Shown: one piece after another, positions 3,111 through 60,917 of the stretch
How positions within the stretch are numbered: the stretch's first letter is position 1
Layout of the letters: every line of letters starts with the position of its first letter
Assembly: GCA_965221695.1 (NCBI GenBank)
Contig: OZ244905.1
Location: forward strand, 2,701,384 to 2,765,383
DNA length: 64,000 bases
Direction: 5' to 3'
Source of the DNA: Gammaproteobacteria bacterium
GTDB lineage: Bacteria; Pseudomonadota; Gammaproteobacteria; Eutrophobiales; Eutrophobiaceae
Position numbers and translations under genes: made by a program
Notes under the pieces: model-generated
What the model was told of the DNA's origin: nothing
The model's database searches: none
Seen by the model: the letters and a program-made list of their open reading frames with translations, nothing else

Positions 3111-3211
3111 TAATATTACAAAGAGTTTTGTTGTCCACTGGATTCCTGCTGTTGCGGTAATGGTATAGATTGGCGGACAATATCAGGTTGAATAACCCAT
3201 GAGATTGAAAG

Positions 3212-11764: not shown

Positions 11765-11975
11765 GCTTACCCATATAGAACGTGGGGCAATCCTTTGTTT
11801 CACCGGTTGAAATAGTTGCCACAGACCAGGGCATTCTCCCGTACCACTCCCGCGAAAGCGGGAGTCCAGTAAAATACTATGTCGCCTGAAAGGCGACCCT
11901 TTGTTCCACCGGCCGGAAAAGCTGTATTCCCACCCAAGCGGGAATCCAGTAAAATAACCGTCTCAAAGAGACACC
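11765..11975. repeat. REP-like nested-palindrome element (family 1)
   Basis: Carries ccgtaccactcccgcgaaagcgggagtccagtaaaat and gtcgcctgaaaggcgac. Lies between dnaJ and dapB. Confidence 0.75.
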
Positions 11976-24034: not shown

Positions 24035-24170
24035 CAGTATAGCACAGGCCAAGGTATTGCCCCGTACCACTCCCGCAACAGCGGGAGTCCAGTCAAATAA
24101 GTGTCGCCCGCAGGGCGACTCATCTGTTTACTGGATTCCCGTTTTCACGGGAATGGTACGGAGCGCACGT
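24035..24170. repeat. REP-like nested-palindrome element (family 1), reverse orientation
   Basis: Tail ggccaaggtattgcccc precedes ccgtaccactcccgcaacagcgggagtccagtcaaat, gtcgcccgcagggcgac and ggattcccgttttcacgggaatggtacgg. Confidence 0.75.
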
Positions 24171-29251: not shown

Positions 29252-29866
29252 ATGTCTAAAAGTTCCAAACGCTGGCTGCAGGAACATAACCGGGATAGGT
29301 ACGTTAACCTGGCCCGGAGCCGGCGACTGCGTTCTCGCGCGGTGTTCAAACTTGAGGAGTTGGACCGGCGTCACAGACTGTTCCGCCCGGGACAGACGGT
29401 GCTTGACCTGGGCGCGGCGCCGGGTAGCTGGTCAGCCTACGTGGCTGAAAAGGTTAGGCCCGACGGCAAAGTCATCGCGGTCGACTTGCTGGCGATGCGG
29501 CCTATTGCCGATGTGATCTTCCTGCAAGCTGACCTGAGCAATGCAGCCAACCTGCAGAATTGTATCGCCCGGCTGAGCGAATACCGCGTTGACCTTGTAA
29601 TTTCTGATATGGCCCCCAATTTATCAGGCATAGCTGCCGCGGATCAGGCCAACAGTCTGAAACTGGCGGAAACCGCTCTCCGAATAGCCTGTTCGGCGCT
29701 GCGCGGTAACGGGCATTTTCTGGTCAAGCTGTTTCAAGGAGCTGACAGCGACGCATTCAGAAAGCAATTGACGGAGAAATTTGCTAAAGTATCAGTGAGC
29801 AAGCCGAAGGCGTCGAGGACGAACTCCAGTGAGGTATACATCCTGGCAAAAGGTTATGAGGTTTAA
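29252..29866 (+). CDS. rlmE: 23S rRNA (uridine2552-2'-O)-methyltransferase RlmE (FtsJ)
   Basis: SSKRWLQEHNRDRYV..RSRAVFKLEELD..VLDLGAAPGSWS SAM-binding motif. Confidence 0.9.
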   Translation: MSKSSKRWLQEHNRDRYVNLARSRRLRSRAVFKLEELDRRHRLFRPGQTVLDLGAAPGSWSAYVAEKVRPDGKVIAVDLLAMRPIADVIFLQADLSNAANLQNCIARLSEYRVDLVISDMAPNLSGIAAADQANSLKLAETALRIACSALRGNGHFLVKLFQGADSDAFRKQLTEKFAKVSVSKPKASRTNSSEVYILAKGYEV

Positions 29867-29984
29867 GAAAGCTTTGAACAAGTCCATCGTTGATCTGTCA
29901 GGTGATGCAAACAATGTAAGTGATAGGATGTATGCTGGCAGGCGCTCGTCCGTTTGTTGAGATAAAGCTCAGGCATAAGGCGTT

Positions 29985-36260: not shown

Positions 36261-36347
36261 GGAGAGGTGCCAGAGTGGTTGAATGGGGCAGACTCGAAAT
36301 CTGTTGTACGCGTCAGCGTACCGTGGGTTCGAATCCCACCCTCTCCG
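36261..36347 (+). tRNA. tRNA-Ser (anticodon CGA)
   Basis: Folds by eye into a cloverleaf: acceptor ggagagg/cctctcc, 3-bp D stem, anticodon loop ctCGAaa, long variable arm gtacgcgtcagcgtac and T-arm cgtgggttcgaatcccac. CCA is not encoded. Confidence 0.85.
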
Positions 36348-36701
36348 TAACATTCATGCCACAGGCGCATCTGGCGCCTGTGGCATGAATGTTGATGCAA
36401 TGGGGTTCGAACCCACGGTAATTAAATACGGGTTCGACAAATTCGCTGGGAGCGAATTTGAACAGCGTAGCTGGCCCCGGAGGGGCAAACTACATGGATG
36501 TAGTTTGTAATCCCACCCTCTCCGTAACATTCATGGCACAGGCGCTTCTGTCGCCTGTGCCATGAATGTTGATGCAATGGGGTTCGAACCCACGGTAATT
36601 AAATACGGGTTCGACAAATTCGCTGGGAGCGAATTTGAACAGCGTAGCTGGCCCCGGAGGGGCAAACTACATGGATGTAGTTTGTAATCCCACCCTCTCC
36701 G
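36348..36701 (+). repeat. two tandem 177-bp direct repeats, each ending in a 17-nt copy of the tRNA-Ser 3' end (att-like)
   Basis: Units 36348-36524 and 36525-36701 each contain a perfect 13-14 bp stem hairpin (catgccacaggcgc..gcgcctgtggcatg vs catggcacaggcg..cgcctgtgccatg, with compensatory gcc<->ggc changes), a gggttcgaaccc palindrome and a terminal aatcccaccctctccg. Confidence 0.85.
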
Positions 36702-38276: not shown

Positions 38277-38684
38277 ATGTCCAGGATTCGTTGTTATAGT
38301 ATCGGTCGAGACCCCTCCGCATCCATCGTACTGCGTCATGAGACGGTGTCGCGCAGGCATGCAGAGTTGATTCCCGTATCCGGCGGGCAGGTATACGTCA
38401 CGGATTGCGCCAGCGCCTGCGGGACTTTCATCGATAAGGGCAGGCGCTGGGAGAGGCTTACCCAGGATTTCGTCGGCGCAGGCGGCAGGGTGCGTTTCGG
38501 CGAGGTTGAGGTCAGCGTGCAGAGTCTGCTGGCGGACATTGCCCGCTTGCCTGCCGGCGGTGGAACGGGTCCCGGCGGTTCGGCGGAGCCCGGCGGTACC
38601 CCAGGCGCCGATAAGAAGAAACATGTGGATGCCGGCCGCGGGGTCATGCGCGACCCGGAAACGGGCGAGCCGATTCCCATGTAA
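38277..38684 (+). CDS. FHA-domain protein (small, cytoplasmic; Pro/Gly-rich tail)
   Basis: YSIGRDPSASIVLRHETVSRRHAEL....GTFI is an FHA core (G-R...S-R-xH...NG-T). First gene of the 8-gene cluster. Confidence 0.7.
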   Translation: MSRIRCYSIGRDPSASIVLRHETVSRRHAELIPVSGGQVYVTDCASACGTFIDKGRRWERLTQDFVGAGGRVRFGEVEVSVQSLLADIARLPAGGGTGPGGSAEPGGTPGADKKKHVDAGRGVMRDPETGEPIPM

Positions 38685-38699
38685 TCGGACAGACAGACC

Positions 38700-39473
38700 A
38701 TGAACCAGAGAATGAGGATATTCATAGGGGCGCTGGGCGCGGGCGTGATCTTCATCGGCCTGCTCAGCCTGTTTTTCTCCGAAGGTTTCTTCGCCGACTT
38801 CCTGCTGGACCGGAATTCGAAGTTCATGCCCTACCCGGTCACGATACAGAATATCATGTGGCTGGTGTTCTTCATCGGGGCGGGAGAATTGCTGTCGCGC
38901 TACCTGCAGACGGACCGGGAAATCAGCCAGATCCGCCTGGGACTGTTGCCGGAGGACAGCACAACCCTATTGCGCAAGCAAGATCTGGGCGGCGTGTACC
39001 AGCGCGTCAAGGAAACCATGCACCCGGCGCCGGGCGCTGCGGAGGATTCCTATTTCCTGCAACGCCTGCTGTCCCGTTGTATCCTGCAGTTCCAGGTCAG
39101 CGGCGCCATTGATAAGGCAAACAACATGTTCAACTCCAGCCTGGAGTTGTTCCAGCACGAGGTCGAGCTGAGGTACAATGCCATTCGCTATATCGTCTGG
39201 CTGATCCCGACCCTGGGGTTCATCGGCACCGTGGTCGGCATCGCGCTGGCGCTCAGCAACGCCGGCAGCGTCGACAACTTCCAGGACCCCACCTTGCTGA
39301 AACAGCTTACCCAGAGTCTCGGCGTAGCGTTCTTTACCACCTTGCTGGCCTTGCTGCAATCCGCGGCGCTGATGTTCGCGCTGCATGTCGTACAAGGACA
39401 GGAGGAAGCGTCGCTGAACCGGATAGGGCAGTATTGCCTGGATAACCTGATTAACCGGTTGTACGAGACTTGA
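38700..39473 (+). CDS. MotA/TolQ/ExbB-family proton-channel subunit
   Basis: Topology TM1 - ~130-aa cytoplasmic domain - TM2/TM3, with the family-typical IVWLIPTLGFIGTVVGIALAL and GVAFFTTLLALLQSAALMF helices. Confidence 0.7.
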   Translation: MNQRMRIFIGALGAGVIFIGLLSLFFSEGFFADFLLDRNSKFMPYPVTIQNIMWLVFFIGAGELLSRYLQTDREISQIRLGLLPEDSTTLLRKQDLGGVYQRVKETMHPAPGAAEDSYFLQRLLSRCILQFQVSGAIDKANNMFNSSLELFQHEVELRYNAIRYIVWLIPTLGFIGTVVGIALALSNAGSVDNFQDPTLLKQLTQSLGVAFFTTLLALLQSAALMFALHVVQGQEEASLNRIGQYCLDNLINRLYET

Positions 39474-39493
39474 TGGGGGTCGCCTGCGCGAGA

Positions 39494-39517
39494 CAAATCG
39501 GCAGGACAGCCGATTTG
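39494..39517 (+). terminator. hairpin after the MotA-like gene (possible terminator/attenuator)
   Basis: caaatcggc-aggaca-gccgatttg, perfect 9-bp stem. No U-tract follows. Confidence 0.3.
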
Positions 39518-39652
39518 CGCAGCGACTGCTGCCCGCAGGGTTGTATCCAGGGAAGGATGCAATGAGTGACGGAAGGAGAGAGGAATGACGGGTGGGTTCA
39601 AGAATGACGGTTAAGGGGCGAAGGGAGGTGTCGGCAAGTGGGTGTCGGCAAG

Positions 39653-39680
39653 TTGAACGCAGGGTGGTTTTCTGTTAAAT
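39653..39680 (+). promoter_or_regulatory. putative sigma-70 promoter for the second transcription unit of the cluster
   Basis: ttgaac-N16-ttaaat. Preceded by a direct repeat gtgtcggcaagtgg/gtgtcggcaagttg at 39628-39655. Confidence 0.3.
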
Positions 39681-39715
39681 TTTCATCAACCGCAACACCA
39701 GAAGGGGAGGACATC

Positions 39716-40375
39716 ATGCCGGTAAAACGCGATGCGGACGGGAACATCATAAAGGAACAGACAAGAACTACCGGAGTGGGTGATCCGGTGTTGCCGACCT
39801 TGGGGCGCTCCACTGTCGGCGCCACGGTCGGCCCCGGCAGGTCTCCCGAGACCAACCCCGGCCAGTCATCGGGTTATGAGGCCCAGACGGTGCTGGCAGG
39901 TTCGCCCCGTGTCGCGGAAGGGGAAGCCAGGACCCGGATCTACCGGCCCGGCAGGACGGGGCGGCAACAGCCGGAGACACCGGCTCCAGGTACGGGCGCT
40001 GAGGACGCGACGTCCTCTGCCATGGACGACCCGCCCGTAGGCTGGCTGGTCGTCGTCAGTGGGCCGGGACAGGGGAACTACATGGCCGTCGGCAACGGTT
40101 CGAATTCAGTCGGACGCGATGAGCGCGAGCGAGTGCGCGTGGATTTCGGTGACGAGTTGATCTCCCGCAGCGACCATTCAACGATCACCTACGATCCCAG
40201 GGGTAAGAAGTTTTACCTGCAGCACGGCGCCGGAAAAAACCTCACTTACCTGGAAGGCAAACCTGTCCTGGCGCCGACCGAACTGCCCGGGTTTTCCCGG
40301 ATCACGATTGGGAACACCGAATTGCTGTTCATCCCGCTCTGTTGCGATCAGTTTGACTGGGACGACTACACGTAA
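39716..40375 (+). CDS. FHA-domain protein (disordered Pro/Gly-rich N-terminus, C-terminal FHA)
   Basis: GWLVVVSGPGQGNYMAVGNGSNSVGRDERERVRVDFGDELISRSDHSTITYDPRGKKFYLQHGAGKNLTYLEGKPV is an FHA core. ATG start lies 6 nt after gaaggggagg; ORF-track start is GTG 39638. Confidence 0.7.
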   Translation: MPVKRDADGNIIKEQTRTTGVGDPVLPTLGRSTVGATVGPGRSPETNPGQSSGYEAQTVLAGSPRVAEGEARTRIYRPGRTGRQQPETPAPGTGAEDATSSAMDDPPVGWLVVVSGPGQGNYMAVGNGSNSVGRDERERVRVDFGDELISRSDHSTITYDPRGKKFYLQHGAGKNLTYLEGKPVLAPTELPGFSRITIGNTELLFIPLCCDQFDWDDYT

Positions 40376-40384
40376 CAGGTCGTT

Positions 40385-41368
40385 ATGAATGCCCTCAAGC
40401 AGTGGGTGTCGGGAGAGCAGATCCAGGGAGACCGAAATTACCAGGAAGACTATTTCTCGCTCAGCCTGCTTTCCCAGGGCCGGGAACCTCCGGATGAAGA
40501 CTGCCTGCTGCTCGTGCTGGCCGACGGCATGGGCGGACATGCCGGCGGCGCCGTTGCCAGCGAGACGGTAGTCAAGGCATTCCAGGAGGGCTTCAACCGC
40601 GATGCAACCGGGATCGCAGAGCGTTTCAGCGCCGGCATCGACACCGCCAACAACGCCGTCAGGGAAAAACAACAGGCCGATCCGGAACTGTCCGAGATGG
40701 GTTGCACCCTGGTGGCCGCGCTGGTGGTCGGGTCGACCCTTTACTGGACCAGCGTCGGCGATTCCATACTGTGGCTGTGCCGGCAGGGACATTTGCAGAG
40801 ATTGAATGCGGACCATTCCATGAAACCGCTGTTGCTGGACCTGGTCGAATTGGGCAGGATGACCGAAGAAGAGGCGCTGAGCGATTACCGGATCAACCAG
40901 CTACGCTCGGCCATTTTCGGCGAGGAGGTTCAGCTGATTGACATGAACGCGGACGGTTTCCAACTGGAGAGTGGTGATCTCGTTTTACTGGCCAGCGACG
41001 GCCTGGAAACCCTGTCCGGGCAAAGCATGACAGATGTCATCGAGGCCCGCGCGGACGATGCCGATGAGATAGTGAACGCCCTGCTTGACGCAGTTGCCAT
41101 GGCGGGGGTGCGCGGGCAGGACAATACTACGGCGCTGGCGTACCGGGTCGGCCAGGGGCATGATTCACTGCACGGCGTACTGGCGGGCATCAGCACAGAT
41201 GACAAGGATGCCGTATTCGAGCAGCAAGTGAAACCCTCCCGAACCTGCGAGTTGCGCCCGGCACAGGAACAGGAAGCGCCGGCAAAGCGGCCCGGCATCT
41301 TCGCCCGAGCCATACATGCCTTCTCCGGTAGACCGGCGCGTCAAGACACTCGTGACGGGAAGCAATGA
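40385..41368 (+). CDS. PP2C-family Ser/Thr protein phosphatase
   Basis: LLVLADGMGGHAGGAVAS, MGCTLVAALV, YWTSVGDSILWL and LLASDGL are canonical PP2C/PPM motifs including the metal-binding Asp residues. Confidence 0.8.
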   Translation: MNALKQWVSGEQIQGDRNYQEDYFSLSLLSQGREPPDEDCLLLVLADGMGGHAGGAVASETVVKAFQEGFNRDATGIAERFSAGIDTANNAVREKQQADPELSEMGCTLVAALVVGSTLYWTSVGDSILWLCRQGHLQRLNADHSMKPLLLDLVELGRMTEEEALSDYRINQLRSAIFGEEVQLIDMNADGFQLESGDLVLLASDGLETLSGQSMTDVIEARADDADEIVNALLDAVAMAGVRGQDNTTALAYRVGQGHDSLHGVLAGISTDDKDAVFEQQVKPSRTCELRPAQEQEAPAKRPGIFARAIHAFSGRPARQDTRDGKQ

Positions 41369-43104
41369 CAGCAATACGAGCATTGATGTTGTGTGCGCTT
41401 CTGGTGTACCTGCCGGCAGGCAACAGCCAGACGACCGGTGATGACGCAGAAGCGCCGGCTGTTTCCTCTGCCACTGCACCCGCTGTGCCTGCTGATACGC
41501 CCGTGACAACGGAGGACCCAGCGCAAATAGCCGCCCCCTCAGCGGATACAGCCACGGCGATTGCCGCGGTTGTGCAGGTTCCCGAACCCGTAGATTTCAG
41601 TGCGGTGCGGCCCCACCTGGTGGTCATAAGAGAAGGGATGGACGCCGCCGCACGTCGCACGCCGGGATTCAGCATCAGCGACCAGGGCCATATCCTGACT
41701 TATTCCGGAGAATTACGCGCCCGGGAGTACTACCTTGTCTCGGTTGCAGGCGGTCAGGTCTTTACTGCTGCGCTGCTTGATGAAGATGAAGACACCGGCC
41801 TCATGCTACTGAGGATCGCAGGAGAAGGGCACGGCCTCACCGCCCTGAAGTTTGCCAGAACGACGCTGGAAGCCGCGGTGCCGCTCTATGCAGTACGGTT
41901 CGACCCGGTGCGGGCGGAGCCGTTCGTGCCCGTTCCCGGCACGGTCACGCGGTTGCCTGCAACGGATGAGGAGACACCGGCAATCGTGCATAATGCCCTG
42001 TTCAATACGGCGGCCGCCGGGACGCCCTTGTTCAACCGTTGTTACCAGGCGGTCGGTGTCAGCGTGCTGCAAAGGAAGGGCTTCCCGCCGAGAACTCTCG
42101 ATCCCCAACAACAGGGTAGCGCCATCTCCCTGGCGGCCTACTCGTTGAGCGTGATCCTGGCGTCGGCCAACCTGACCCTGCCCATCGCTGAGGCGGAGTG
42201 CCAGAGTGCGGAGGAGGAGGCGCGACTGCGGCTGGAACAACTTCAGCAGGAAAAAGAGGCGGAGCGGGCAAATGCCGAAGCCCTGGCCCTTGCCGCCGCG
42301 GAGGAAGCGCTGCGCAGGGAGGCGGTAATGAACCTGGAGCGGGAAGCAGCGCAACAGCAGCTTGAACAGGCGCGCCAAGAGAAAGAAGCGGCCCTGCAGG
42401 CGGAGCGGGCAAGTGCCGAAGCCGATAAGCGCCGTTTGGAAGAAGAAGCGCAGCAACAACTTGAACAGGCGCAGCAGGAGAAGGAACAGGCCCTGCAGGC
42501 ACAACAGCAGGAGAATGAACAGGCTCTGCAGGTGGAGCGGCAGGAGACCGAACAGGCCCGGCGGGAAGCCCGGCAGGCGACGCATACGGGGAAACAGATC
42601 CTGCTGTTATCGCTAGCGGTCGTCTTCGTCCTGGCGCTGGTCTTCTTCCTGGTCCTGCGCGCCAGGCGTAAACACCTGCAACGCGTGGAACAGGAAAAAC
42701 AGCAGTTCGCCCAGGACCTGGACAGGGCAGAGGCAGACCTGTCAGACGCCTCCGAGAGGGAGCAGCTACGCGCCGGCGCCCCCGACGTGTTTATCGAGGG
42801 TGTCACGCCGCAGAACGAGCGCATCGCCCTGAAAATACCCGGCGCCTCACTGGTCAAACCCTCAGGTGTCACGGTAGGCAGGAGTCCCTCCGAATCCGAG
42901 TTCGTCATCAATCACGAACAGGTCTCCCGCCGCCATTTCCGCCTCATGCTGGTGTCTGGGCAGGTGATGATCGAAGATATGGGCTCGACCAATGGGACCG
43001 TCGTGAACGGCGTGCCCCTCAGTCCCGGCGCCCGGCAGACGCTGGGCGACGGCAGCCGCATGCAGGTCGGGCGCGTGACGATGACGGTGCGGATAGGTCT
43101 CTGA
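41365..43104 (+). CDS. bitopic membrane protein: signal peptide - degenerate trypsin-like (pseudo-protease) periplasmic domain - long coiled-coil - TM - cytoplasmic C-terminal FHA domain
   Basis: Periplasmic part resembles the S1 fold (GHILTYSG..; DTGLMLLRI; AAAGTPLFN in place of GNSGGPL), with the catalytic His and Ser replaced. EQARQEKEAALQAERASAEADKRRLEEEAQQQLEQAQQEKEQALQ heptad region, TM ILLLSLAVVFVLALVFFLVL, then FHA (VGRSPSESEFVINHEQVSRRHFRL..GSTNGTVVNG). Confidence 0.6.
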   Translation: MTAIRALMLCALLVYLPAGNSQTTGDDAEAPAVSSATAPAVPADTPVTTEDPAQIAAPSADTATAIAAVVQVPEPVDFSAVRPHLVVIREGMDAAARRTPGFSISDQGHILTYSGELRAREYYLVSVAGGQVFTAALLDEDEDTGLMLLRIAGEGHGLTALKFARTTLEAAVPLYAVRFDPVRAEPFVPVPGTVTRLPATDEETPAIVHNALFNTAAAGTPLFNRCYQAVGVSVLQRKGFPPRTLDPQQQGSAISLAAYSLSVILASANLTLPIAEAECQSAEEEARLRLEQLQQEKEAERANAEALALAAAEEALRREAVMNLEREAAQQQLEQARQEKEAALQAERASAEADKRRLEEEAQQQLEQAQQEKEQALQAQQQENEQALQVERQETEQARREARQATHTGKQILLLSLAVVFVLALVFFLVLRARRKHLQRVEQEKQQFAQDLDRAEADLSDASEREQLRAGAPDVFIEGVTPQNERIALKIPGASLVKPSGVTVGRSPSESEFVINHEQVSRRHFRLMLVSGQVMIEDMGSTNGTVVNGVPLSPGARQTLGDGSRMQVGRVTMTVRIGL

Positions 43105-43818
43105 ATGAACCGTTCATTGTGGTGCGGTTTGATATTTCTCAGCCTCTGGGGTCTGAGTTACCAGGGTGGCGCGGATATTGATGACCAGGAAGAACATTTC
43201 AGGGAGGAGCAGGGGGCGCAACAGGATCAGGAAGCCGCGCGACGGGAACGCAAGCGTGCCCGACAGGCAGAACAGGAGGCGCTCCGGCAACAGGAAGCGG
43301 CGCGCCAGCGCGTGGTTCAGCAAAATCTGTTCGTAACCTTGCTGGCTCTGTTGACCCTGCTGGCCTTGATACTGGCCTTGAGAAAACCCCGGCAGGCCAT
43401 TGTTTGGGCCGCCGGCCACGCAATCGAACCACTCAGTCGGCGCTTCAAACCGGCAGGGCGCTTGCCCGCGCCGGGCGCAGCCCGCGCCGGGACGGCAAAC
43501 GTCGTACTTACGGGCTTTGACAGCCGGGGCAAACCGGTGAATATCCCGTTGCCGGAGGAGGAACTGGATCGGAAACGGGGCGGTTTCACCCTGGGGCGCC
43601 ATCACCTGCTGGTCGATACGGCGCTGGACGATGACCGGATATCGAAGCGCCATGCCCGGTTCACCCGCAACGGTCACGGCTATTTTATCGAAGACCTCAA
43701 TTCGAGAAACGGCACTGTGATCAACGGTGAGCAACCCTGCGCGCCGTTCAAACCCATGCGAATCAGGCCCGGCGACACGGTGCGGCTAGGCGGCATGGAG
43801 TTGCTCGTATCGGCCTGA
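43105..43818 (+). CDS. bitopic membrane protein: signal peptide - periplasmic coiled-coil - TM - cytoplasmic C-terminal FHA domain
   Basis: N-terminal hydrophobic leader, charged coiled-coil (EQGAQQDQEAARRERKRARQAEQEALRQQEAARQ), TM FVTLLALLTLLALILAL, then FHA (LGRHHLLVDTALDDDRISKRHARF..NSRNGTVING). The start codon abuts the previous stop. Confidence 0.6.
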   Translation: MNRSLWCGLIFLSLWGLSYQGGADIDDQEEHFREEQGAQQDQEAARRERKRARQAEQEALRQQEAARQRVVQQNLFVTLLALLTLLALILALRKPRQAIVWAAGHAIEPLSRRFKPAGRLPAPGAARAGTANVVLTGFDSRGKPVNIPLPEEELDRKRGGFTLGRHHLLVDTALDDDRISKRHARFTRNGHGYFIEDLNSRNGTVINGEQPCAPFKPMRIRPGDTVRLGGMELLVSA

Positions 43819-43831
43819 TTCGGAAGCGCCC

Positions 43832-44635
43832 GTGAGGCTACGCAGCAAGGAGATCAATGTCTTCAACATGTCCGCGCTGGACCTGTTCGCCTCCGCGCTG
43901 GGTGCGTTTATCCTTATTTCCGTGGTCTTGTTTCCCTATTTTCCCAACACCGGCGATTCCCAGGAACGGGTGGACGAGGTCAAGGCGCAACTGGCTGAGG
44001 CCAATGCGCGATTGGAGGAAACCAGCGCCGAACTGGAGCAGGTCCGCGCCCGGTTGAACCCCGCCCTGGAACAAGAACTGCAGGTCGCACGAGAACAACT
44101 CGGCGCGTGCCAGGCCCGACTCCGGGAGGCAGAGGCCGCGCTAAACGCCTGCCAGGTTGAACAGCGAGAAGTTGCATCATTGGATTCCGCGCTGGGCGCC
44201 TGCGAGAACCGCAACCGGCAGATGCAACAGGAACTGCAATCCTGCGAGAATGAATTGCGCAAGAAATTCGTGCTGGTCGTGATCAGCTGGGGCACGCCGG
44301 ACGATATCGACCTGCACGTGATCGATCCGCAAGGCCGGGAGTTCTTCTACGGGCGCAAACACATCCCCGGTTCCCTGGCAAAACTGGAAGAGGACAACAC
44401 CAGAGGTCCCGGCAATGAGATCTGGCTGCACCCGGCCGCGGAGCCGGGCGCCTACGAGGTTTACTACAAATATTACGATGGATCAACCGGCAACGTGCAG
44501 GTGCGCGGCGCGGCGCTGACGCCCCGCGGCAGGACGGAGTTGCCGGACATCACTCTGCGGTACGTGGGTGAGAAGCCCCTGGTGGCAACCATTTTCGTCA
44601 ATGAGGATGGCAACGCTGAGGTGAGGGCATGGTAA
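43832..44635 (+). CDS. ExbD/TolR/MotB-like membrane anchor fused to a coiled-coil and an unknown beta-rich C-terminal domain
   Basis: N-terminus KEINVFNMSALDLFASALGAFILISVVLF matches the TolR/ExbD TM signature (E-I-N-x-x-P/N-x-x-D-V/L), including the conserved protonatable Asp. Followed by a ~110-aa coiled-coil and a ~120-aa domain (..DIDLHVIDPQGREFFYG..GAYEVYYKYYDGSTGN..). Confidence 0.5.
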   Translation: MRLRSKEINVFNMSALDLFASALGAFILISVVLFPYFPNTGDSQERVDEVKAQLAEANARLEETSAELEQVRARLNPALEQELQVAREQLGACQARLREAEAALNACQVEQREVASLDSALGACENRNRQMQQELQSCENELRKKFVLVVISWGTPDDIDLHVIDPQGREFFYGRKHIPGSLAKLEEDNTRGPGNEIWLHPAAEPGAYEVYYKYYDGSTGNVQVRGAALTPRGRTELPDITLRYVGEKPLVATIFVNEDGNAEVRAW

Positions 44636-44661
44636 CGCGGCGGGAGGGGAATTTTCCGCAT

Positions 44662-44693
44662 TGACACGATTTCCCAGGCCCCCTTAGAATACG
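44662..44693 (+). promoter_or_regulatory. putative sigma-70 promoter for the kinase gene, followed by a hairpin
   Basis: ttgaca-N18-tagaat. A ccggtgaca..tgtcaccgg hairpin lies at 44700-44730, inside the 130-bp gap before the kinase start. Confidence 0.35.
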
Positions 44694-44766
44694 GTTTAAC
44701 CGGTGACACAATTTAATTCTGTCACCGGATTTACGGGGCAAACATAACAAACAAAGACGGCCTTCC

Positions 44767-47373
44767 ATGAACTCCGACCACCTGCATGCCCTACCGCCCG
44801 GCACGCGCCTTGAAGAATTTCGGCTGGAGGCGCAGGTGGGCGCCGGCGGGTTCAGCATCACCTATCGGGCCTATGACGAATTACTGGACAAGGTGGTGGC
44901 CGTCAAGGAATACCTGCCGCGGGATTTCGCCACCCGCACCGCCGGCAATACAGTGGCGCCCATATCCGATGCGGACGCCCGGGATTACCAGTGGGGCCTG
45001 ACCCGGTTCCTGGACGAGGCCCGCACGCTGGCCAGGTTCGACCATCCGCATCTCAACAAGGTGCGTCGTTTCTTCGAGGCCAACGGCACGGCCTACATGG
45101 CGCTGGAGCATATCCATGGCGAGACCCTGGCTACCCGGTTAAGCCGCGAGCGGCGCTTGCCGGAAACGGACCTGCTGCGCCTGCTGGAGGAAGTGTTATC
45201 GGGACTTGCTGTGATTCACGAGGCTGGCTACGTGCACCGGGACATCAAACCGGGCAACCTGATGCTGCGCGAGGAAGACGACAGCATAGTGCTGCTGGAC
45301 TTCGGCGCCGCGCGCCAGGCAGTGGGCCAGAGTTCCAAGTCAATCACCAGCATCCTGACACCGGGCTATGCCCCGATAGAGCAGTACGAAAGCAAAGCGG
45401 ACGCCGTCGGACCGTGGAGTGATATCTATGCATTGGGGATGGTGGCGTACAAGTGCATCAGCGGCGCGGGTGACGGGGAGTTGCCCGATGCCGTGACCCG
45501 GGCCCGCTCCCAACGCAAAGGGGGTAAGGACCTGGCGATGGCGGCGGAGGTGGGCCAGAGCAGGTACAGTGCGAAGCTGCTGGCGGCGATAGACTGGGCC
45601 ATCGAGGTGGATGAGGAGTCCCGGCCGCAGGGGGTGGGTGAGTGGAGTGAGGCGCTGGTGGGGAGCGGGAGCAAGCAACGAGCCGCCAAACCGGCGCCTA
45701 ATACAACGGCACGGTCTGCAAAGGCTCCGGCCACCGAGCGCCAGGGTATGAATTGGTACAGCATGGCCCTGACCGCGGTGATAGTGGTGTTACTGGGAGC
45801 GAGCGCCTGGCAGGGCTGGCGGCTGTATCAGGGGATGCCCGGGCTTGGCGTAGACGGCGCCGCCACGGCAGTTGAGTCGCAGGCAAACGCACAGGGCAAA
45901 GCAGAGTTAGCAGCAGAACCCTATGCACAAACACCAACGGTAACGCCAGAACAAGGCTCCGGGCCTGACGCGCCCACACTGGCCGCGCCGGTTGAGGAAG
46001 ACGAAGTCGCCCGGCTGCTGGCTGCAGCCGAAGCCGACTTGGAGGCAAGACGCCTGACCAGTCCGCAGGGGAACAACGCCTGGGAGAAGTACCGGCGGGT
46101 ATTGGGTTTATCCTCCGCGCACCCCGAGGCCATAGCGGGGATGGAGCGGGTGATCGGGAGTTACATGGACCTGTTCGGCGCTGTTCTGGAGCAGGAGGAT
46201 TTTGACCAGGCGGAGGGGTATCTCTCACGCATCCGCGACCTGCACCCGGATTCGCCACTCTTGTTGACGGGGAAAGAACGTTTGGAACAAGCCCGGCAGG
46301 CTCATGTCGAGCGGTTGGCGGAAGAAGAGCGCCTGCGCCAGGCCGAGGAAGCGGCGCGCCAGGCGGAACAGGAGCGCCAGCGAATAGCACAGGAAATCGA
46401 GAGACACTGGCAGTCCTTTGAGACGGCAATGCAGCAAGACAAATTGGACCGGGCGGAAGACAGTCTCAACCTCGTGCGGGAGTTGGACTCGGACGCGCCG
46501 GGGTTAGCGGATGCGGAACGACGCCTGTCACAGGCGCGGGAAGCATCCCGGCAGAAGGCGCTGCAGTATGCCGGTGAGATGGTCTCCATCCCTGCCGGCA
46601 GTTTCCGCATGGGGGACCTGACAGGCGCTGACGCTGAGAAACCGGTCCACAGTGTGCGAGTCGCGGCCTTCAGCATGGGCAAGTATGAGGTAACGGTGGG
46701 CCAGTTCCAGCGGTTTGTGGAGGCGACGGGGTACCTCACGGATGCGGAGCGTTATACGGACGGCAAAGCAGGTTGTTCTGTCTATACAACAAAAAGATGG
46801 AAGTACACCGAGGGCAAGAGTTGGCGCAATCCGGGGTTTTCAGTCGGAGACAAGCACCCGGTGGTGTGCGTGAACTGGAATGATGTGCAGGCGTTCGTGA
46901 AGTGGCTGAACGGCAATACCGATGGGGATTTCCGCTTGCCGACCGAGGCGGAGTGGGAGTATGCGGTGCGCGCCGGGAGCAGTACGAAGTATCATTTCGG
47001 CAATGATGAGTCACAACTGTGCCGGTTTGCCAGCCATGCGGACAGCGGGACGGATATTGATTGGAAAAACAAGTCCTGCTCGGACGGTGTGGGCGAACGC
47101 ACCGCCGAAGTGGGCCGTTACCAGCCGAACAGTTTCGGGCTGTATGACATGCACGGCAATGTCTGGGAGTGGGTGACAGATTGCTGGAATGAGAGTTATG
47201 TGGGCGCCCCGACAGACGGTAGCGCCTGGACGAATGGGGACTGCAGCCGGCGCGTCATTCGGGGCGGGGCCTGGGACAGCTCACCGTGGAACCTGCGTTC
47301 CGCGCACCGTTACGGGAGCTCCCGTTCGAATCACAGCTCTTATCTGGGCTTTCGCTTGGCCCGGGACAACTGA
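44767..47373 (+). CDS. transmembrane Ser/Thr protein kinase with periplasmic coiled-coil region and C-terminal FGE/SUMF1 (formylglycine-generating enzyme-like) domain
   Basis: Hanks kinase motifs (VAVKEY; HRDIKPGNLML; LLDFGAAR; TPGYAPIEQ), TM ALTAVIVVLLGASAW and the FGE-sulfatase fold signature (MGKYEVTVGQFQRFV; FRLPTEAEWEYAVRAG; YDMHGNVWEWVTDCW; RVIRGGAWDS). Confidence 0.85.
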   Translation: MNSDHLHALPPGTRLEEFRLEAQVGAGGFSITYRAYDELLDKVVAVKEYLPRDFATRTAGNTVAPISDADARDYQWGLTRFLDEARTLARFDHPHLNKVRRFFEANGTAYMALEHIHGETLATRLSRERRLPETDLLRLLEEVLSGLAVIHEAGYVHRDIKPGNLMLREEDDSIVLLDFGAARQAVGQSSKSITSILTPGYAPIEQYESKADAVGPWSDIYALGMVAYKCISGAGDGELPDAVTRARSQRKGGKDLAMAAEVGQSRYSAKLLAAIDWAIEVDEESRPQGVGEWSEALVGSGSKQRAAKPAPNTTARSAKAPATERQGMNWYSMALTAVIVVLLGASAWQGWRLYQGMPGLGVDGAATAVESQANAQGKAELAAEPYAQTPTVTPEQGSGPDAPTLAAPVEEDEVARLLAAAEADLEARRLTSPQGNNAWEKYRRVLGLSSAHPEAIAGMERVIGSYMDLFGAVLEQEDFDQAEGYLSRIRDLHPDSPLLLTGKERLEQARQAHVERLAEEERLRQAEEAARQAEQERQRIAQEIERHWQSFETAMQQDKLDRAEDSLNLVRELDSDAPGLADAERRLSQAREASRQKALQYAGEMVSIPAGSFRMGDLTGADAEKPVHSVRVAAFSMGKYEVTVGQFQRFVEATGYLTDAERYTDGKAGCSVYTTKRWKYTEGKSWRNPGFSVGDKHPVVCVNWNDVQAFVKWLNGNTDGDFRLPTEAEWEYAVRAGSSTKYHFGNDESQLCRFASHADSGTDIDWKNKSCSDGVGERTAEVGRYQPNSFGLYDMHGNVWEWVTDCWNESYVGAPTDGSAWTNGDCSRRVIRGGAWDSSPWNLRSAHRYGSSRSNHSSYLGFRLARDN

Positions 47374-47463: not shown

Positions 47464-49089
47464 TCACCGCATCGATTTTTGCAGTACCGAGAAGTTTCTT
47501 ACCCAAGGCTCTAGTTTGCGTATTTCATCGGGCAAATCATCTATAGCTCTTTCGGCAAGCTCATAGTCATGGTACAGACCATAAAACACGCGATAGTAAG
47601 TTATCTGCTCGATCTCGATCCTGATATAGGCAATCTGCTGTGTCAGGTTATTCTGTTTGAGGAAATTTAGCACACGTTCTTCACTGGAAAAGCTGGCCAG
47701 TTGCAAAGTGTAGTGATACGGAGATTGTGCGGCGACCCAGTCTTCCCGCCTGATAGCGGTCTCACCGGCGTCAGAGGCATCCTCGCCAGCCAACTCATCT
47801 TCATCGGAAATGACCTCGCTGGTGGTCGCAACCAGATCGGAAATGGCCTCTGGTACAGCCGCAATGTATTCCGCTGTCGCTGGTACAGGGCTGGTGTCCG
47901 CGGTCTCTGCAACAGTCTCCGGCGTTTCCTCCTCCGCGGCGTTCAGCGCGATCTCGGCGGTGTCCTCATCCGTCTGAGCAGCTACGATGGTCGGCGTTTC
48001 TTCGACAGCAGGCGCTGTGTCTTCTGCTTCAGTTGCCTCAGCAGCAGTTTGAGCAAGGCTGGTCTCCGCGGTCTCTGCAACGATCTCCGGCGCTTCCTTC
48101 TCCGCATCGAACAGTGCGGTCTCGGCTGTGTCTTCGTCCGACTGAGCGGCTATGGTCGGCGCTTCCTCCTGCGTGACGCTCAGTGCGGTCTCGGCAGCGT
48201 CCTCATCCGGCTGAGCAGCTATAATCGGTGTTTCCTCGACGGCAGGTACCGTATCTTCTTCAGTTGCCTGCGCAAAGGGTTCTGTTGTTTCCTGCATTGC
48301 AGGCGCTTGCGATACGGTCGTGTCCTCTTCAATATCGACATAAGCAAGTCTTTGTAAGCTTTCTTCTGCCTGTTGCAGACCCCCGGCGGCCGCGCGTTGA
48401 TACCATTTTTTCGCCTCCACCAGGTCCTTTTCTACCGCGTAACCATTTTCATAGTACACGCCCATGTTGAATTGCGCCTGTGGGACATCGGCGTCAGCGG
48501 CTTTTCTGAACCAGAGTAGCGCTACATCATAGTCCTGGTCGACGCTGTAACCGAAGGCGTACATGACAGCCAGGCTGTATTGCGCATTTCCGTTTCCCTG
48601 CTCTGCTGCTTGGCGGAAAAGCCGGGTGGCTGTTTCATAATCCCGGGTAATCTGCTCACTGCCGTTGAAGTACAAAAGGCCAAGGTTGAACAGCGCATCC
48701 GATTGCCCGGCCGCCGCGGCCAGCTTCCACCATTGCATGACTTTAGACGGGTCTTTTGTGACACCATCACCGTGCAAGTACTTGACGCCGAGCTCGAATT
48801 GGGCGTCGGGGTGCCCTTGATCCGCCGCAAGCAAGTACCATTTTACTGCTTCGGCAGAATCTGCGTTAACGCCATGGCCATAGTCATACATGAGGCCAAG
48901 CATTCTTTGCGCATCCGAGTTGCCGTCCTCAGCCAGTGGTTGCAGTATTTCGTAGGCTTTTTCGTAGTCTTTGGCCAGGTAGGCCTGTCTCGCCGTTTCA
49001 AAAGATTGCGCCAGCACAGGGCCGGAAAATACCAACCCCAATAACAGGAAAGGAATTAACTTGGTCAGCATAAACCGTATCTTTGACAT
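47464..49089 (-). CDS. secreted Sel1-repeat (SLR) protein with acidic tandem-repeat linker and C-terminal SPOR (septal peptidoglycan-binding) domain
   Basis: Signal peptide, then >=6 Sel1-like repeats (A..W..AA.QG...AQ..LG.MY..G.GV..D), a D/E/T/A-rich repetitive region and a C-terminal SPOR-like fold (YTLQLASFSSEERVLNFLKQNNL...YYRVFYGLYHDYELAERA). Confidence 0.65.
   Translation of the reverse strand: MSKIRFMLTKLIPFLLLGLVFSGPVLAQSFETARQAYLAKDYEKAYEILQPLAEDGNSDAQRMLGLMYDYGHGVNADSAEAVKWYLLAADQGHPDAQFELGVKYLHGDGVTKDPSKVMQWWKLAAAAGQSDALFNLGLLYFNGSEQITRDYETATRLFRQAAEQGNGNAQYSLAVMYAFGYSVDQDYDVALLWFRKAADADVPQAQFNMGVYYENGYAVEKDLVEAKKWYQRAAAGGLQQAEESLQRLAYVDIEEDTTVSQAPAMQETTEPFAQATEEDTVPAVEETPIIAAQPDEDAAETALSVTQEEAPTIAAQSDEDTAETALFDAEKEAPEIVAETAETSLAQTAAEATEAEDTAPAVEETPTIVAAQTDEDTAEIALNAAEEETPETVAETADTSPVPATAEYIAAVPEAISDLVATTSEVISDEDELAGEDASDAGETAIRREDWVAAQSPYHYTLQLASFSSEERVLNFLKQNNLTQQIAYIRIEIEQITYYRVFYGLYHDYELAERAIDDLPDEIRKLEPWVRNFSVLQKSMR
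47890..48280. repeat. intragenic imperfect tandem DNA repeats (~170-215 bp units with sub-repeats) encoding the acidic linker of the Sel1-SPOR protein
   Basis: Recurring gcggtctcggc(a/t)g(c/t)gtcctcatccg(g/t)ctgagcagcta..atggtcggcg(c/t)ttc blocks. Translated repeats are DEDTAETAL..EAPEIVAETAETS. Confidence 0.6.
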
Positions 49090-60747: not shown

Positions 60748-60898
60748 GGAAACTCTGAACAAGTCCATCCTGGACTTGTCAGAGTACGGAAAACAAAAAT
60801 GCGATTTTTGTTTTCCTCACAATATCAATGCCTTACAGACATTGATATTGACGATACATCCTTGTATCGTAGGAACCTCTGACTTAATCAGAGGTTCC
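60746..60898. repeat. MITE-like multi-hairpin element (family 2) between the MFS transporter and the MBL hydrolase
   Basis: Same orientation and ~95% identity to 2926-3110. It starts at the MFS stop codon. Confidence 0.8.
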
Positions 60899-60917
60899 TT
60901 AGTTTTGGAGACAACTT

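Follow-up and report, generated by a model that had tools for sequence, protein, structure and literature searches.

Two adjacent genes in the 64-kb window (the whole stretch of DNA that we analyzed) encode the proteins P579 and P237, which are what is left of a conserved pair made up of a pseudo-protease and an active protease. P237 is the active S1-TM-FHA paralogue minus its protease domain, and P579 is the dead member of the pair. An earlier note on this DNA had described both proteins and missed two points: the pairing itself, and the conserved eight-gene module to which both genes belong.

Gene cluster and related loci

The coordinates of the two open reading frames (Table 1) agree with those given earlier, and both proposed junctions can be read in the sequence: the stop codon of the PP2C gene overlaps the start of P579 in an ATGA (GCAATGACAGC), and the start of P237 abuts the P579 stop in a TGAATG.

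Table 1. Features of the cluster and of P579 (positions in the window; domain positions in residues).
Feature	Position	Strand	Description
Small soluble FHA protein, 135 aa	38277..38684	+	Pfam FHA 7-74, E 3e-13; first gene of the cluster
MotA/ExbB/TolQ-like three-TM protein, 257 aa	38700..39473	+	Pfam MotA_ExbB, E 1e-10
Soluble FHA protein, 245 aa as ORF	39638..40375	+	Pfam FHA 157-225, E 4e-6; N-terminal half disordered
PP2C Ser/Thr phosphatase, 327 aa	40385..41368	+	Pfam PP2C_2 and PP2C; overlaps P579 gene
P579, 579 aa	41365..43104	+	Leader, A/P/T-rich linker, dead HtrA-like S1 domain, charged stalk, TM helix, FHA
P579 leader, 1-22	41365..41430	+	N-terminal hydrophobic; predicted Sec signal or anchor
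P579 HtrA/DegS-fold domain, 76-282	41590..42210	+	AF2, Foldseek, family profile; triad absent
P579 stalk, 283-410 (128 aa)	42211..42594	+	E/A/Q/R-rich, proline-free
P579 TM helix, 412-430	42598..42654	+	KD 3.33, strongest hydrophobic segment; then RARRKH
P579 FHA domain, 496-579	42850..43101	+	Pfam FHA 502-569, E 2e-16; PDB FHA matches to 6e-9
P237, 237 aa	43105..43818	+	Leader 1-23, charged helix 24-73, TM 74-92, RKPR, linker, FHA 162-229
P267	43832..44635	+	N-in TM helix, Cys-containing periplasmic coiled coil, YfaP/TerD-like beta-sandwich
Hanks-type Ser/Thr kinase, 868 aa	44767..47373	+	Pfam Pkinase E 2e-31; FGE-sulfatase E 1e-67

The recurring module comprises a small FHA protein, a MotA/ExbB-like protein, a further FHA protein, a PP2C phosphatase, the S1-TM-FHA pair, a Hanks kinase, and a conserved N-TM protein whose head is either YfaP/TerD-like or vWA. 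The PP2C, small FHA, MotA/ExbB, P267-like and kinase genes recur in eight related loci. In L002, L007, L009, L010, and L011 the cluster begins with an orthologue of the small FHA gene, and the MotA/ExbB-like gene is present in eight of the nine related loci, missing only from L005, where the P267-like gene is missing too. A vWA protein joins the PP2C and kinase in L002, L006, L008, and L009; the window has the TerD-like/YfaP-like beta-sandwich. The locus on Rhizobium leguminosarum pRlBT01d encodes a 500-aa leader-X-TM-FHA protein in place of the S1 versions. A literature search found no published description of this kinase/phosphatase FHA module; the cluster is conserved in proteobacteria yet unstudied.

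Catalytic motifs are kept in both signaling enzymes. The kinase translation shows VAVK, HRD, and DFG, and its kinase domain (19-234) is followed by a TM helix (~330-348), a periplasmic helical region, and an FGE-sulfatase-like domain of the C-type-lectin fold (603-866). The phosphatase matches the NCBIfam Stp1/IreP family at E 7e-41, below the equivalog cut-off. The MotA/ExbB-like protein has TM segments at 7-25, 165-183, and 209-227. The 245-aa FHA frame probably starts at an internal ATG at 39716, because an MPxxxDxDGNI N-terminus is kept in the L002 and L005 orthologues.

The protease-like head of P579

The S1 fold that had been proposed for the periplasmic module of P579 is borne out by an AF2 model, Foldseek matches, and a family profile, all of which agree. 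Residues 81-290 were modeled with pLDDT 92.9 and pTM 0.89; the top Foldseek matches in the PDB were Deg1, DegS, and HtrA1 (E 3e-11 to 8e-10, TM ~0.7); and a profile of 31 family members matched HTRA1 (4e-26), DegS (4e-23), and DegP (7e-20). Pfam Trypsin_2 on residues 101-232 scored 28.4 bits, barely over its gathering score of 27.6.

The head is catalytically dead, as had been claimed from the replacement of His and Ser, and the loss goes further: all three catalytic residues are gone, not two. When P579 is aligned to active HtrA references with mafft, the His, Asp, and Ser columns hold G115, G145, and A218. The motif D-x-[AG]-L-[LM]-[KR]-I given earlier implies a retained catalytic Asp, but its D143 lies two residues upstream of the catalytic position. 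Three other residues of the head (H209, C226, and C279) are invariant. The check for an intact triad in orthologues that the earlier note had suggested shows catalytic loss to be conserved in them and in a wider family. The architecture of leader, S1-like domain, TM, and FHA occurs in at least 51 clusters (50% identity representatives), and among 51 representatives the Ser is retained in 1, the His in 7, and the Asp in 12.

The dN/dS ratio is 0.17-0.35 across every P579 segment (0.17-0.23 for the protease-fold domain; 0.18 for the stalk against L010) and 0.19 for P237. Both genes are under purifying selection (dN/dS ~0.2).

P237 and the protease pair

Five related loci (L002, L005, L007, L008, and L009) encode a Ser-less protein and, immediately after it, a paralogue with intact H, D, and S and a TM-FHA portion. 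Residues 18-237 of P237 align to 236-445 of the 445-aa protein of L002 (43% identity, E 5e-54). The N-terminal half of that L002 protein is occupied by an S1 domain in which H, D, and S are all intact; P237 corresponds to the C-terminal half and is a protease-deleted derivative of the active paralogue. The L010 orthologue of P237 (412 aa) is likewise without a protease domain. Our search covered the 64-kb window, and an active partner protease could sit elsewhere in the genome.

Topology, FHA domains, and stalks

P579 and P237 are predicted to be type-I bitopic proteins, in each of which a single TM helix connects the periplasmic part to a C-terminal FHA domain in the cytoplasm. This out-to-in topology, put forward earlier, is supported by heuristics: the leaders, the positive-inside rule, two Cys of the head that never vary, canonical leaders of the AxA type in relatives, and partners (the kinase and PP2C) that are cytoplasmic. 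Both proteins have an N-terminal hydrophobic leader. That of P579 (KD 1.72 over residues 1-19, then an acidic stretch) is itself without a clean AxA site; leaders of first-of-pair relatives end in ANA, GLA, AYA, ALA, or AMA. Six K/R fall within 15 residues after the P579 TM helix, and in P237 the strongest hydrophobic segment is likewise the one followed by the basic motif. The two Cys of the head and one His are invariant across members only 20-25% identical, which, with the presence of leaders, suggests a periplasmic location of the P579 head.

Canonical phosphothreonine (pThr)-contact residues are present in the FHA domains of P579 (R506, S521, H524, and N543) and P237 (R165, S180, H183, and N202; Pfam E 3e-17). 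The P579 FHA also matches Pfam Yop-YscD_cpl at 40.8 bits (cut-off 33.2).

The claim that the charged regions are heptad coiled coils did not hold. The 3.5-residue hydrophobic periodicity was matched by 31% of shuffles for P579 283-410 and 26% for P237 24-73; in contrast, 0/2000 shuffles reach the heptad signal of P267, which is strongly periodic. The stalks are ~76% E/A/Q/R and proline-free, and hold 14 i/i+4 opposite-charge pairs versus 8.9 +/- 2.5. Composition, absence of proline, and pair enrichment therefore fit a charged helical stalk; a coiled coil is unproven. As a single continuous helix, the P579 stalk would be ~19 nm long; a 33-aa repeat lies within it (42343-42401 and 42442-42500). 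The charged helix of P237 is much shorter (50 aa, ~7.5 nm).

P267

The N-in TM helix of P267 (267 aa) bears an invariant Asp (SALDLFASALGAF), and the protein is a candidate partner of the MotA/ExbB-like protein. Its AF2 model (pLDDT 90.5) resembles TerD-like 2qz7 and 2qng (TM ~0.63), and its sequence is 36% identical to E. coli YfaP (E 3e-6). Neither Pfam ExbD nor hhalign against TolR revealed ExbD/TolR homology.

Discussion

The P579 head has the two-barrel chymotrypsin fold of HtrA (S1C) proteases, especially DegS, and is clearly homologous to them in sequence. DegS is likewise periplasmic and tethered to the inner membrane and serves as a signaling device rather than a bulk protease. Unlike DegS, P579 is without catalytic His, Asp, and Ser and without a PDZ domain, its anchor is C-terminal rather than N-terminal to the protease domain, and it adds a charged stalk of 128 aa and an FHA domain in the cytoplasm. 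Where DegS cleaves RseA, P579 would be expected to signal by phospho-dependent docking.

Cytoplasmic FHA folds on single-pass membrane proteins with a periplasmic part also occur in YscD/PrgH of type III and EssC of type VII secretion systems. Their FHA is N-terminal (type II), and the order in P579 and P237 is reversed. The name EssB in the earlier comparison is a slip for EssC: the type VII protein with N-terminal FHA domains is EssC, and EssB carries a pseudokinase domain. YscD-type FHA domains are without the pThr-binding residues, whereas those of P579 and P237 retain them. No secretion-system genes were found near the cluster.

The order of a TM helix and then a C-terminal FHA has a precedent. 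FhaB/FipA (Rv0019c, Mycobacterium tuberculosis, NF049868) has a TM helix, a linker, and a C-terminal cytoplasmic FHA, and sits beside Hanks kinases and PP2C; P579 413-573 aligns to positions 6-156 of the 158-position model (56 bits, equivalog cut-off 125). FipA is phosphorylated by PknA, and the interaction needs the FipA FHA domain (PMC3989709). FhaB/FipA differs in being essentially without an extracytoplasmic domain, with no protease head, stalk, or MotA-like neighbor, and in its actinobacterial host, where the gene lies in a cell-division/peptidoglycan-synthesis operon with rodA and pbpA.

The type VI secretion pathway (PpkA, PppA, Fha/TagH, and TssL) likewise combines a Gram-negative membrane Hanks kinase bearing a periplasmic sensor with a PP2C. 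There, in a precedent for pThr-dependent docking (PMC3953482), PpkA phosphorylates a membrane protein, and FHA proteins dock on its pThr and trigger assembly of an envelope machine. P237 matches TagH (TIGR03354) weakly, at 38 bits. In the window, the FHA proteins P579 and P237 are themselves bitopic with periplasmic modules, and type VI genes turned up neither in the ORF listings of the related loci nor in Pfam scans, which covered the cluster plus ten flanking ORFs.

We put at about even chances a reading in which P579 and P237 are membrane-spanning arms of an envelope signaling module, run by the Hanks kinase and PP2C, that forms a phosphothreonine-gated complex. A periplasmic cue would be sensed by the FGE-sulfatase-like ectodomain of the kinase, which would phosphorylate cluster proteins at threonines of their cytoplasmic segments. 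Both arms, through their FHA domains, and the two soluble FHA proteins would dock on those phosphothreonines and so assemble or rearrange an inner-membrane complex, which PP2C would reset. The complex probably includes the MotA/ExbB-like channel and its single-TM partner P267, as suggested by gene neighborhood, joint absence from one locus, and one weak PADLOC match.

An envelope-surveillance or anti-phage conflict system is an unlikely alternative: a Zorya-like MotA/MotB-type stator and a defense-type kinase would detect invasion at the envelope, the FHA arms would relay or execute the response, and the dead protease would either sense an invader protein or lure it as a decoy. Among PADLOC models, the MotA/ExbB-like protein matches ZorA2 (E 7.5e-6), P267 residues 6-70 match ZorB1 (MotB; E 3.8e-4), and the kinase matches PD-T4-6 and mad6 (E 1e-45 to 1e-42), but the kinase matches reflect the generic Hanks fold only, and P579 and P237 match no PADLOC model. 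There is no ZorC, ZorD, ZorE, nuclease, or other effector, and no ZorA tail or OmpA-like peptidoglycan-binding domain. Toxin-antitoxin genes, transposases, Fic, and a DGR bAvd with an FGE ORF flank related loci; the window cluster, however, sits among housekeeping genes (carB, ftsH, a phosphoglucosamine-mutase-like gene, and serA), and its MR_MLE neighbor recurs in L007 and L008, which suggests a stable chromosomal position. FGE-sulfatase domains have been discussed as invader-binding sensors (PMC7159879), and vWA + PP2C + Ser/Thr kinase (TerY-P) triads are reported as stand-alone defense systems and described as phosphorylation-dependent switches (PMC10542128). The cluster resembles TerY-P in combining PP2C and kinase with a vWA (relatives) or TerD-like (window) module. 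It differs in that this module follows a conserved TM helix and is predicted to lie in the periplasm; in a kinase with an FGE-sulfatase ectodomain rather than a zinc ribbon or OB fold; and in adding four FHA proteins, the MotA/ExbB-like protein, and S1-like heads.

Similarly improbable, in our estimate, is an energized envelope machine for outer-membrane/cell-wall maintenance or transport, in which the MotA/ExbB-like protein and P267 would form a proton-driven stator and P579 and P237 would be TonB/TolA-like, periplasm-spanning arms gated by phosphothreonine/FHA docking. As in Zorya ZorA/ZorB, MotAB, ExbBD, and TolQR, a MotA/ExbB-family protein is accompanied by a single-TM protein whose membrane Asp is invariant; here the latter is extremely conserved, and the two genes occur in nearly all related loci and are jointly missing from L005. 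Four other genes separate them, however, and the lack of detectable ExbD/TolR homology in P267 counts against a stator. P579 is laid out like TolA/TonB (cytoplasmic end, TM, proline-free charged helix of ~19 nm, and globular head), but its polypeptide polarity is opposite, no SHLS-type TM motif, TonB_C, or TolA_III domain was found, and the P237 stalk is far shorter. Weak NCBIfam matches point to Myxococcus GltG, an FHA + TM protein that works with a TolQR-like motor.

That both proteins are simply decaying, P579 as a dead protease and P237 as a truncated paralogue with function gone, is already disfavored and in our view highly improbable. In its favor, all three catalytic residues are lost, the second gene's protease domain is deleted, and truncated or frameshifted copies occur on some metagenome contigs (P0002-P0005, L003, L004, and L011). 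Against it, dN/dS stays at ~0.2 from the dead domain through stalk and TM to the FHA; the window, L001, and L010 have intact ORFs; at least 50 divergent clusters keep Ser-less heads with the invariant H, C, and C; and the FHA pThr residues are intact.

In the phosphothreonine-gated signaling module that we favor, the dead protease head, for which the earlier note had suggested a peptide- or peptidoglycan-sensing role, would be held up to ~19 nm off the membrane, as a non-catalytic peptide/protein-binding module or as the regulatory partner of a protease. At canonical loci the dead head would pair with its active paralogue, a pairing that we propose because HtrA proteases work as oligomers. In the lineage of the window, the proteolysis of the pair would have been lost, and a binding or scaffolding role alone may be left.

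A cluster of FHA, phosphatase and kinase genes

Using Pfam and NCBIfam models, we identified eight closely spaced + strand genes at 38277-47373, including adjacent genes for two proteins that combine a TM helix with a C-terminal FHA domain, P579 (579 aa) and P237 (237 aa). The earlier note had described tight junctions around these genes, and both proved exact: the PP2C phosphatase gene and the P579 gene share an ATGA overlap (GCAATGACAGC), and the TGA of P579 lies directly against the ATG of P237 (CTCTGAATGAAC). A contig from a Gammaproteobacteria MAG (CBDCSC010000001.1) matches the window at 97-98% protein identity.

Features of the cluster and of the surrounding DNA
Feature	Position	Strand	Size	Remark
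Gene 1, FHA protein		+	135 aa	Pfam/NCBIfam
Gene 2, MotA257, MotA/ExbB-family protein	38700-39473	+	257 aa	E 1e-10
Gene 3, protein with C-terminal FHA domain	39638-40375	+	245 aa	Pfam/NCBIfam
Gene 4, PP2C phosphatase	40385-41368	+	327 aa	Stp1-like, E 7e-41
Gene 5, P579	41365-43104	+	579 aa	
Gene 6, P237	43105-43818	+	237 aa	
Gene 7, P267	43832-44635	+	267 aa	without Pfam domain
Gene 8, Hanks-type Ser/Thr kinase	44767-47373	+	868 aa	C-terminal FGE-sulfatase domain
Sigma-70-like promoter match	44661-44690			
Sel1-repeat protein with SPOR domain	47464-49089	-		convergent neighbor
Repeat in acidic linker of Sel1/SPOR protein	47886-48230			family D2
Tandem repeat	36323-36676		177-nt unit	family D3
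Dispersed intergenic repeat	2949-3117, 3813-3951, 29862-29927, 60738-60906		66-169 nt	families D1, D5, D6
Hairpin element	351-407, 11820-11876, 24043-24099			family D9

The listed start of the 245-aa FHA ORF is a GTG at 39638. Its orthologues at two related loci in other genomes (L002, 8261; L005, 13347) begin with the sequence MPxxxDxDGNI, which is conserved and maps in the window to an internal ATG at 39716. We speculate that the conserved Thr-containing N-terminus of this protein could be a GarA-like phospho-switch peptide. The 131 nt that precede the kinase gene contain a sigma-70-like match (TTGACA, 18-nt spacer, TAGAAT; 11/12), so the kinase may be transcribed from a promoter of its own; promoter-like sites are no more numerous in the region than expected by chance.

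We note several repeats near the cluster and elsewhere in the window. The protein encoded by the convergent neighbor combines Sel1 repeats with a SPOR domain at its C-terminus, a type that binds septal peptidoglycan, and its acidic linker is internally repeated. Just upstream of the cluster, in the gap between DUF1015 and AAA_14/DUF4143 genes, a 177-nt unit occurs twice in tandem (95% identity). A dispersed intergenic repeat (81-96% identity) resembles a REP or MITE element, and another repeated element carries the hairpin CCCGCGAAAGCGGGA. A diversity-generating retroelement acting on the FGE-sulfatase domain of the kinase was considered and rejected for this locus, as the window holds no template-repeat-like copy of the 3' end of that domain. 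Just downstream of the orthologous cluster at locus L010 (17051-17951) are a small FGE-sulfatase ORF and a gene for bAvd, an accessory protein of diversity-generating retroelements.

The P579 head has an HtrA-type fold without a catalytic triad

P579 begins with a hydrophobic leader (residues 1-19) and an Ala/Pro/Thr-rich linker (residues 22-75) whose length differs among close orthologues, followed by a globular domain, the head. The S1 fold that the earlier note had assigned to this domain was borne out. Alone, the head scored just above the gathering score of Pfam Trypsin_2 (28.4 vs 27.6 bits) and matched MucD, HhoA, HtrA1, and DegS in the PDB weakly (E 0.025-0.9); a 31-member family profile matched HTRA1 (E 4e-26), DegS (E 4e-23), and DegP (E 7e-20). 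For an AlphaFold2 model of residues 81-290 (pLDDT 92.9, pTM 0.89), the top Foldseek matches in the PDB were Deg1, DegS, and HtrA1 (E 3e-11 to 8e-10, probability 1.0, TM ~0.7). Since the model, the Foldseek matches, and the profile matches are all of HtrA type, we set aside the reading that the domain lacks an S1 fold. Of the features that define HtrA/S1C proteases, the head has both the chymotrypsin-like double beta-barrel and the HtrA-type sequence homology.

The His-Asp-Ser triad of these proteases (TNxHV, D-x-A-L-L-K, and GNSGGP) is absent from P579. In a mafft alignment with active HtrA-type references, GYIVTNxHV reads GHILTYSGEL (His replaced by G115), D(I/L)A(L/V)LKI reads (DT)GLMLLRI (Asp replaced by G145), and GNSGGPL reads AAAGTPL (Ser replaced by A218). 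Loss of His and Ser had been recognized before, with Asp treated as kept; the Asp column holds glycine as well, and D143 lies two residues upstream of it. PDZ domains, one or two of which follow the protease domain in HtrA/S1C proteins, gave no Pfam match in P579 at E up to 0.1; after the head come a charged stalk, a TM helix, and then the FHA domain. Based on modeled fold and homology, we regard the head as an HtrA derivative.

Close relatives of P579 are rare: a word-index search found nine matches among 5.8 billion clusters, and in an exhaustive search eight representatives reached E < 1e-30. When the best 150 exhaustive matches were taken at 50% identity, 50 representatives had the order leader, S1-like domain, TM helix (at ~330-420), and C-terminal FHA domain. 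In the 51 sequences formed by these representatives and P579, the catalytic Ser is kept in one, His in seven, and Asp in 12, and the sole intact member, P0119, is the second gene of a pair. Source names in the family, where there are any, read 'FHA domain-containing protein'. A word-index profile search with a diverse family alignment returned mostly ordinary HtrA/PepD proteases and few new family members, and the S1-like head had no match among plasmid sequences.

FHA domains, topology, and stalks

The FHA domains of P579 (residues 496-579) and P237 score 60.6 and 63.1 bits against PF00498, for which the curated cut-off is 20.7. The residues that contact phosphothreonine (pThr), namely the Arg of GR, the Ser and His of SxxH, and the Asn of NG, correspond to R506, S521, H524, and N543 in P579 and to R165, S180, H183, and N202 in P237, so that both domains keep the canonical contact residues. 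The kinase and PP2C motifs of the cluster are also intact.

The earlier note had proposed a periplasmic part and a cytoplasmic C-terminal FHA domain for both proteins, and this predicted topology agrees with four observations. First, both have an N-terminal hydrophobic leader, and the leaders of relatives are classical, ending in ANA, GLA, AYA, ALA, or AMA. Second, a basic cluster follows the TM helix; in P579 the strongest hydrophobic helix is at residues 412-430 (KD 3.33), followed by RARRKH and a linker of ~65 residues to the FHA domain. Third, the only invariant head residues across members just 20-25% identical are H209, C226, and C279, and the conserved Cys pair fits an oxidizing compartment. 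Fourth, the phosphothreonine read by FHA domains is the product of ATP-dependent kinases, and the kinase domain and PP2C of the cluster are leaderless. We also considered lipoprotein signals and rejected them, as neither LMLC nor SLWC in the leaders fits a lipobox by eye.

The stalk of P579 is 128 residues long, 76% E/A/Q/R, and free of proline. A heptad coiled coil had been suggested for the stalks of both proteins, and the periodicity was not significant: period-3.5 hydrophobicity power was matched by 31% of shuffles for P579 283-410 (35% for the best 28-residue window) and by 26% for P237 24-73. The coil of P267 (residues 40-146) exceeded all 2000 shuffles. Opposite-charge pairs at i/i+4 numbered 14 in the P579 stalk, against 8.9 ± 2.5 expected. 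Because the period-3.5 signal does not stand out from shuffles and these pairs are enriched, we describe the P579 stalk as charged and helix-prone, possibly a single alpha-helix, rather than as an established coiled coil. Stalks formed by one continuous helix would measure ~19 nm in P579 and ~7.5 nm in P237.

P237 resembles an active paralogue without its protease domain

At five related loci (L002, L005, L007, L008, and L009), a gene lacking the catalytic Ser is directly followed by an active paralogue that keeps TNxHV, DLA(L/V), and GNSGGP and continues into a TM helix and an FHA domain. Residues 18-237 of P237 align with residues 236-445 of the 445-aa active paralogue of L002 (43% identity, E 5e-54), and the leaders are alike (MNRSLWC and MKHRVWC). 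Based on this alignment to the C-terminal half and on the similar leaders, we interpret P237 as the partner with the active protease after a clean loss of the protease domain. In the L010 orthologue of P237 (412 aa), the protease domain is likewise missing, and a long helical region of repetitive sequence takes its place. No S1-like ORF besides P579 was found within the 64-kb window.

Both genes are under purifying selection. Compared with the 77%-identical L010 orthologue, P579 gave dN/dS values (Nei-Gojobori) of 0.23 for the head, 0.18 for the stalk, 0.21 for the TM helix and linker, and 0.35 for the FHA domain, and P237 gave 0.19. Because these values range from 0.18 to 0.35, we consider the two genes to be maintained and not decaying.

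At three other loci (L003 and L004, 10001-11020; L011, 10001-11452) we observed truncated or frameshifted dead-protease copies without a TM helix or FHA domain, in clusters interrupted by toxin-antitoxin genes (HicA, RelE, and TacA, among others). These broken copies may be artifacts of assembling the repetitive DNA that codes for the stalk, or the genes may truly have decayed.

A conserved module and the P267 family

A common gene set in broadly similar order is present in the window and at L002, L006, L007, L008, L009, L010, and L011; in L006 and L008 the arrangement departs from this, and the L008 and L009 contigs stop before the cluster is complete. The set comprises a small FHA protein, a MotA/ExbB protein, an FHA protein of ~220-240 aa, a PP2C phosphatase, one or two S1-TM-FHA genes, a P267-type protein with the N-terminus (K/R)xx(K/R)EINxFSMSALDLFASALGAFILI..LFPYFPN, and a Hanks kinase whose C-terminal domain varies (FGE-sulfatase, ankyrin, or other).

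In 30 sequences of P267-type proteins with differing C-terminal domains, 12 positions of the N-terminal TM helix, Asp17 among them, do not vary. The family is very large (941 matches) and has no Pfam model and no source names; Pfam gave nothing for the N-terminal 60 residues or the C-terminal domain of P267, even at E up to 10. The periplasmic coiled coil of P267 carries four spaced Cys residues. Its C-terminal domain was modeled as a beta-sandwich (AlphaFold2 pLDDT 90.5) with TerD-like 2qz7 and 2qng as best Foldseek matches (TM 0.62-0.64, E 2e-3 to 8e-3), and this domain shares 36% identity with E. coli YfaP over ~90 residues (E 3e-6).

Plasmid pRlBT01d of Rhizobium leguminosarum BT01, an alphaproteobacterium in culture, encodes a related module (record 152158-176889). 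PP2C, FHA, MotA/ExbB, and P267-like genes are joined there by ORFs of 180 and 1610 aa without Pfam match, a leader-X-TM-FHA protein of 500 aa, and two kinases that carry PDZ or PDZ+PAN domains. Judged by eye, the leader-X-TM-FHA protein possibly has vWA-like motifs in its head.

Discussion

The observation made in the earlier note is real, and richer than described there. The domains are of known kinds, and the known kind behind the module is FHA/Hanks-kinase envelope signaling; the arrangement and the conserved module appear uncharacterized. P579 and P237 resemble FhaB/FipA in architecture only (a TM helix and a C-terminal FHA domain), scoring 56.3 and 52.1 bits against NF049868, far below its cut-off of 125. 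YscD/PrgH proteins of type III secretion begin with an FHA-like domain, which precedes a TM helix and the periplasmic domains that build the ring, an order reversed in P579 and P237. Against TagH/Fha of type VI secretion (TIGR03354, cut-off 120 bits), P237 scores 38.1 bits. No type III or type VI secretion families were found among the scanned ORFs of the cluster and its flanks, and P579 and P237 differ from YscD-, EssC-, and TagH-type proteins in both domain order and genomic context. A literature search on FHA, trypsin, MotA/ExbB, PP2C, FGE-sulfatase, vWA, and DUF2135 themes found no published description of the cluster, which is weak evidence because subscription journals were mostly outside its scope. 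Only systems on related themes came up, namely the TerY-P triad and an operon of Deinococcus with the composition vWA-STK-FHA-PP2C (bioRxiv 10.64898/2026.01.23.701218).

We propose a general scheme, which we consider about evenly balanced between right and wrong. With its periplasmic FGE-sulfatase-like domain as the sensor, the kinase would mark cytoplasmic segments of cluster proteins with pThr; the FHA domains of the two arms (P579 and P237) and of the two soluble FHA proteins would dock on these marks, and an inner-membrane complex would be assembled or reconfigured, to be reset by the PP2C. The dead P579 head would be a non-catalytic binding or regulatory module, which at canonical loci probably works with the active paralogue and in the lineage of the window would work without proteolysis by the pair. 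Signaling may run in either direction.

Two alternatives overlap with this scheme in their parts. The first, a conflict system of the Zorya or TerY-P kind, we think unlikely. PADLOC matched residues 6-70 of P267 to ZorB1 (MotB; E 3.8e-4) and MotA257 to ZorA2 (E 7.5e-6), but these matches are weak, partial, and confined to TM regions. Zorya is defined by a long C-terminal tail on ZorA, a peptidoglycan-binding domain on ZorB, and effector genes, whereas MotA257 is tailless, P267 has a TerD/YfaP-like domain, and PADLOC found no match to ZorC, ZorD, or ZorE. The TerY-P triad combines a vWA protein (TerY) with a PP2C and a Ser/Thr kinase; the window has the latter two, but its corresponding gene carries the TerD/YfaP-like domain, with vWA as the C-terminal domain of P267-type proteins at L002 (second copy), L006, L008, and L009.

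The second alternative, a PMF-energized machine of the Tol/TonB kind gated by phosphorylation, seems similarly improbable to us. MotA_ExbB and P267-like genes co-occur and are co-absent across related loci, both being missing from L005. The invariant Asp in the highly conserved TM helix of P267 and the match to ZorB1 also speak for an ExbD/TolR/MotB-type stator partner. Against it, P267 did not match Pfam ExbD, and hhalign of the P267 family with E. coli TolR was negative, a comparison of low sensitivity based on a single TolR sequence. A stator pair of the MotA-like protein and P267 is a lead, not a result. We likewise hold it doubtful that the cluster is a new envelope machine, in which the MotA/ExbB-like protein and the Asp-bearing P267 form a proton-channel stator, coupled through pThr and FHA domains to periplasm-spanning arms with HtrA-like heads. 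If true, the heads would canonically be one dead and one active, and the Hanks kinase and PP2C would gate an energized periplasmic proteolytic or surveillance device, a phospho-regulated analogue of Tol/TonB or Zorya systems. Simple gene decay is very improbable, as the dN/dS values and the conservation of P579 and P237 led us to reject a pseudogene reading.

To our knowledge, the mechanism of Hanks-kinase/PP2C/FHA signaling in Gram-negative bacteria is understood in few cases, mainly in the control of type VI secretion. The module recurs in Gamma- and Alphaproteobacteria, with FHA readers built into single-pass membrane proteins. The heads of these proteins in the periplasm are interchangeable and may be HtrA-like and active, HtrA-like and dead, possibly vWA-like, or missing altogether. 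Threonine phosphorylation in the cytoplasm would thereby be connected, directly and physically, to a (pseudo)protease in the periplasm, and the conserved dead/active protease pair would be a naturally occurring example of regulation by a pseudoenzyme in the bacterial envelope. Two families of the module, the P267 family and its MotA/ExbB-like partner, are very conserved and have no functional annotation, and the version in the cultured and genetically tractable Rhizobium leguminosarum (pRlBT01d) makes these hypotheses testable.
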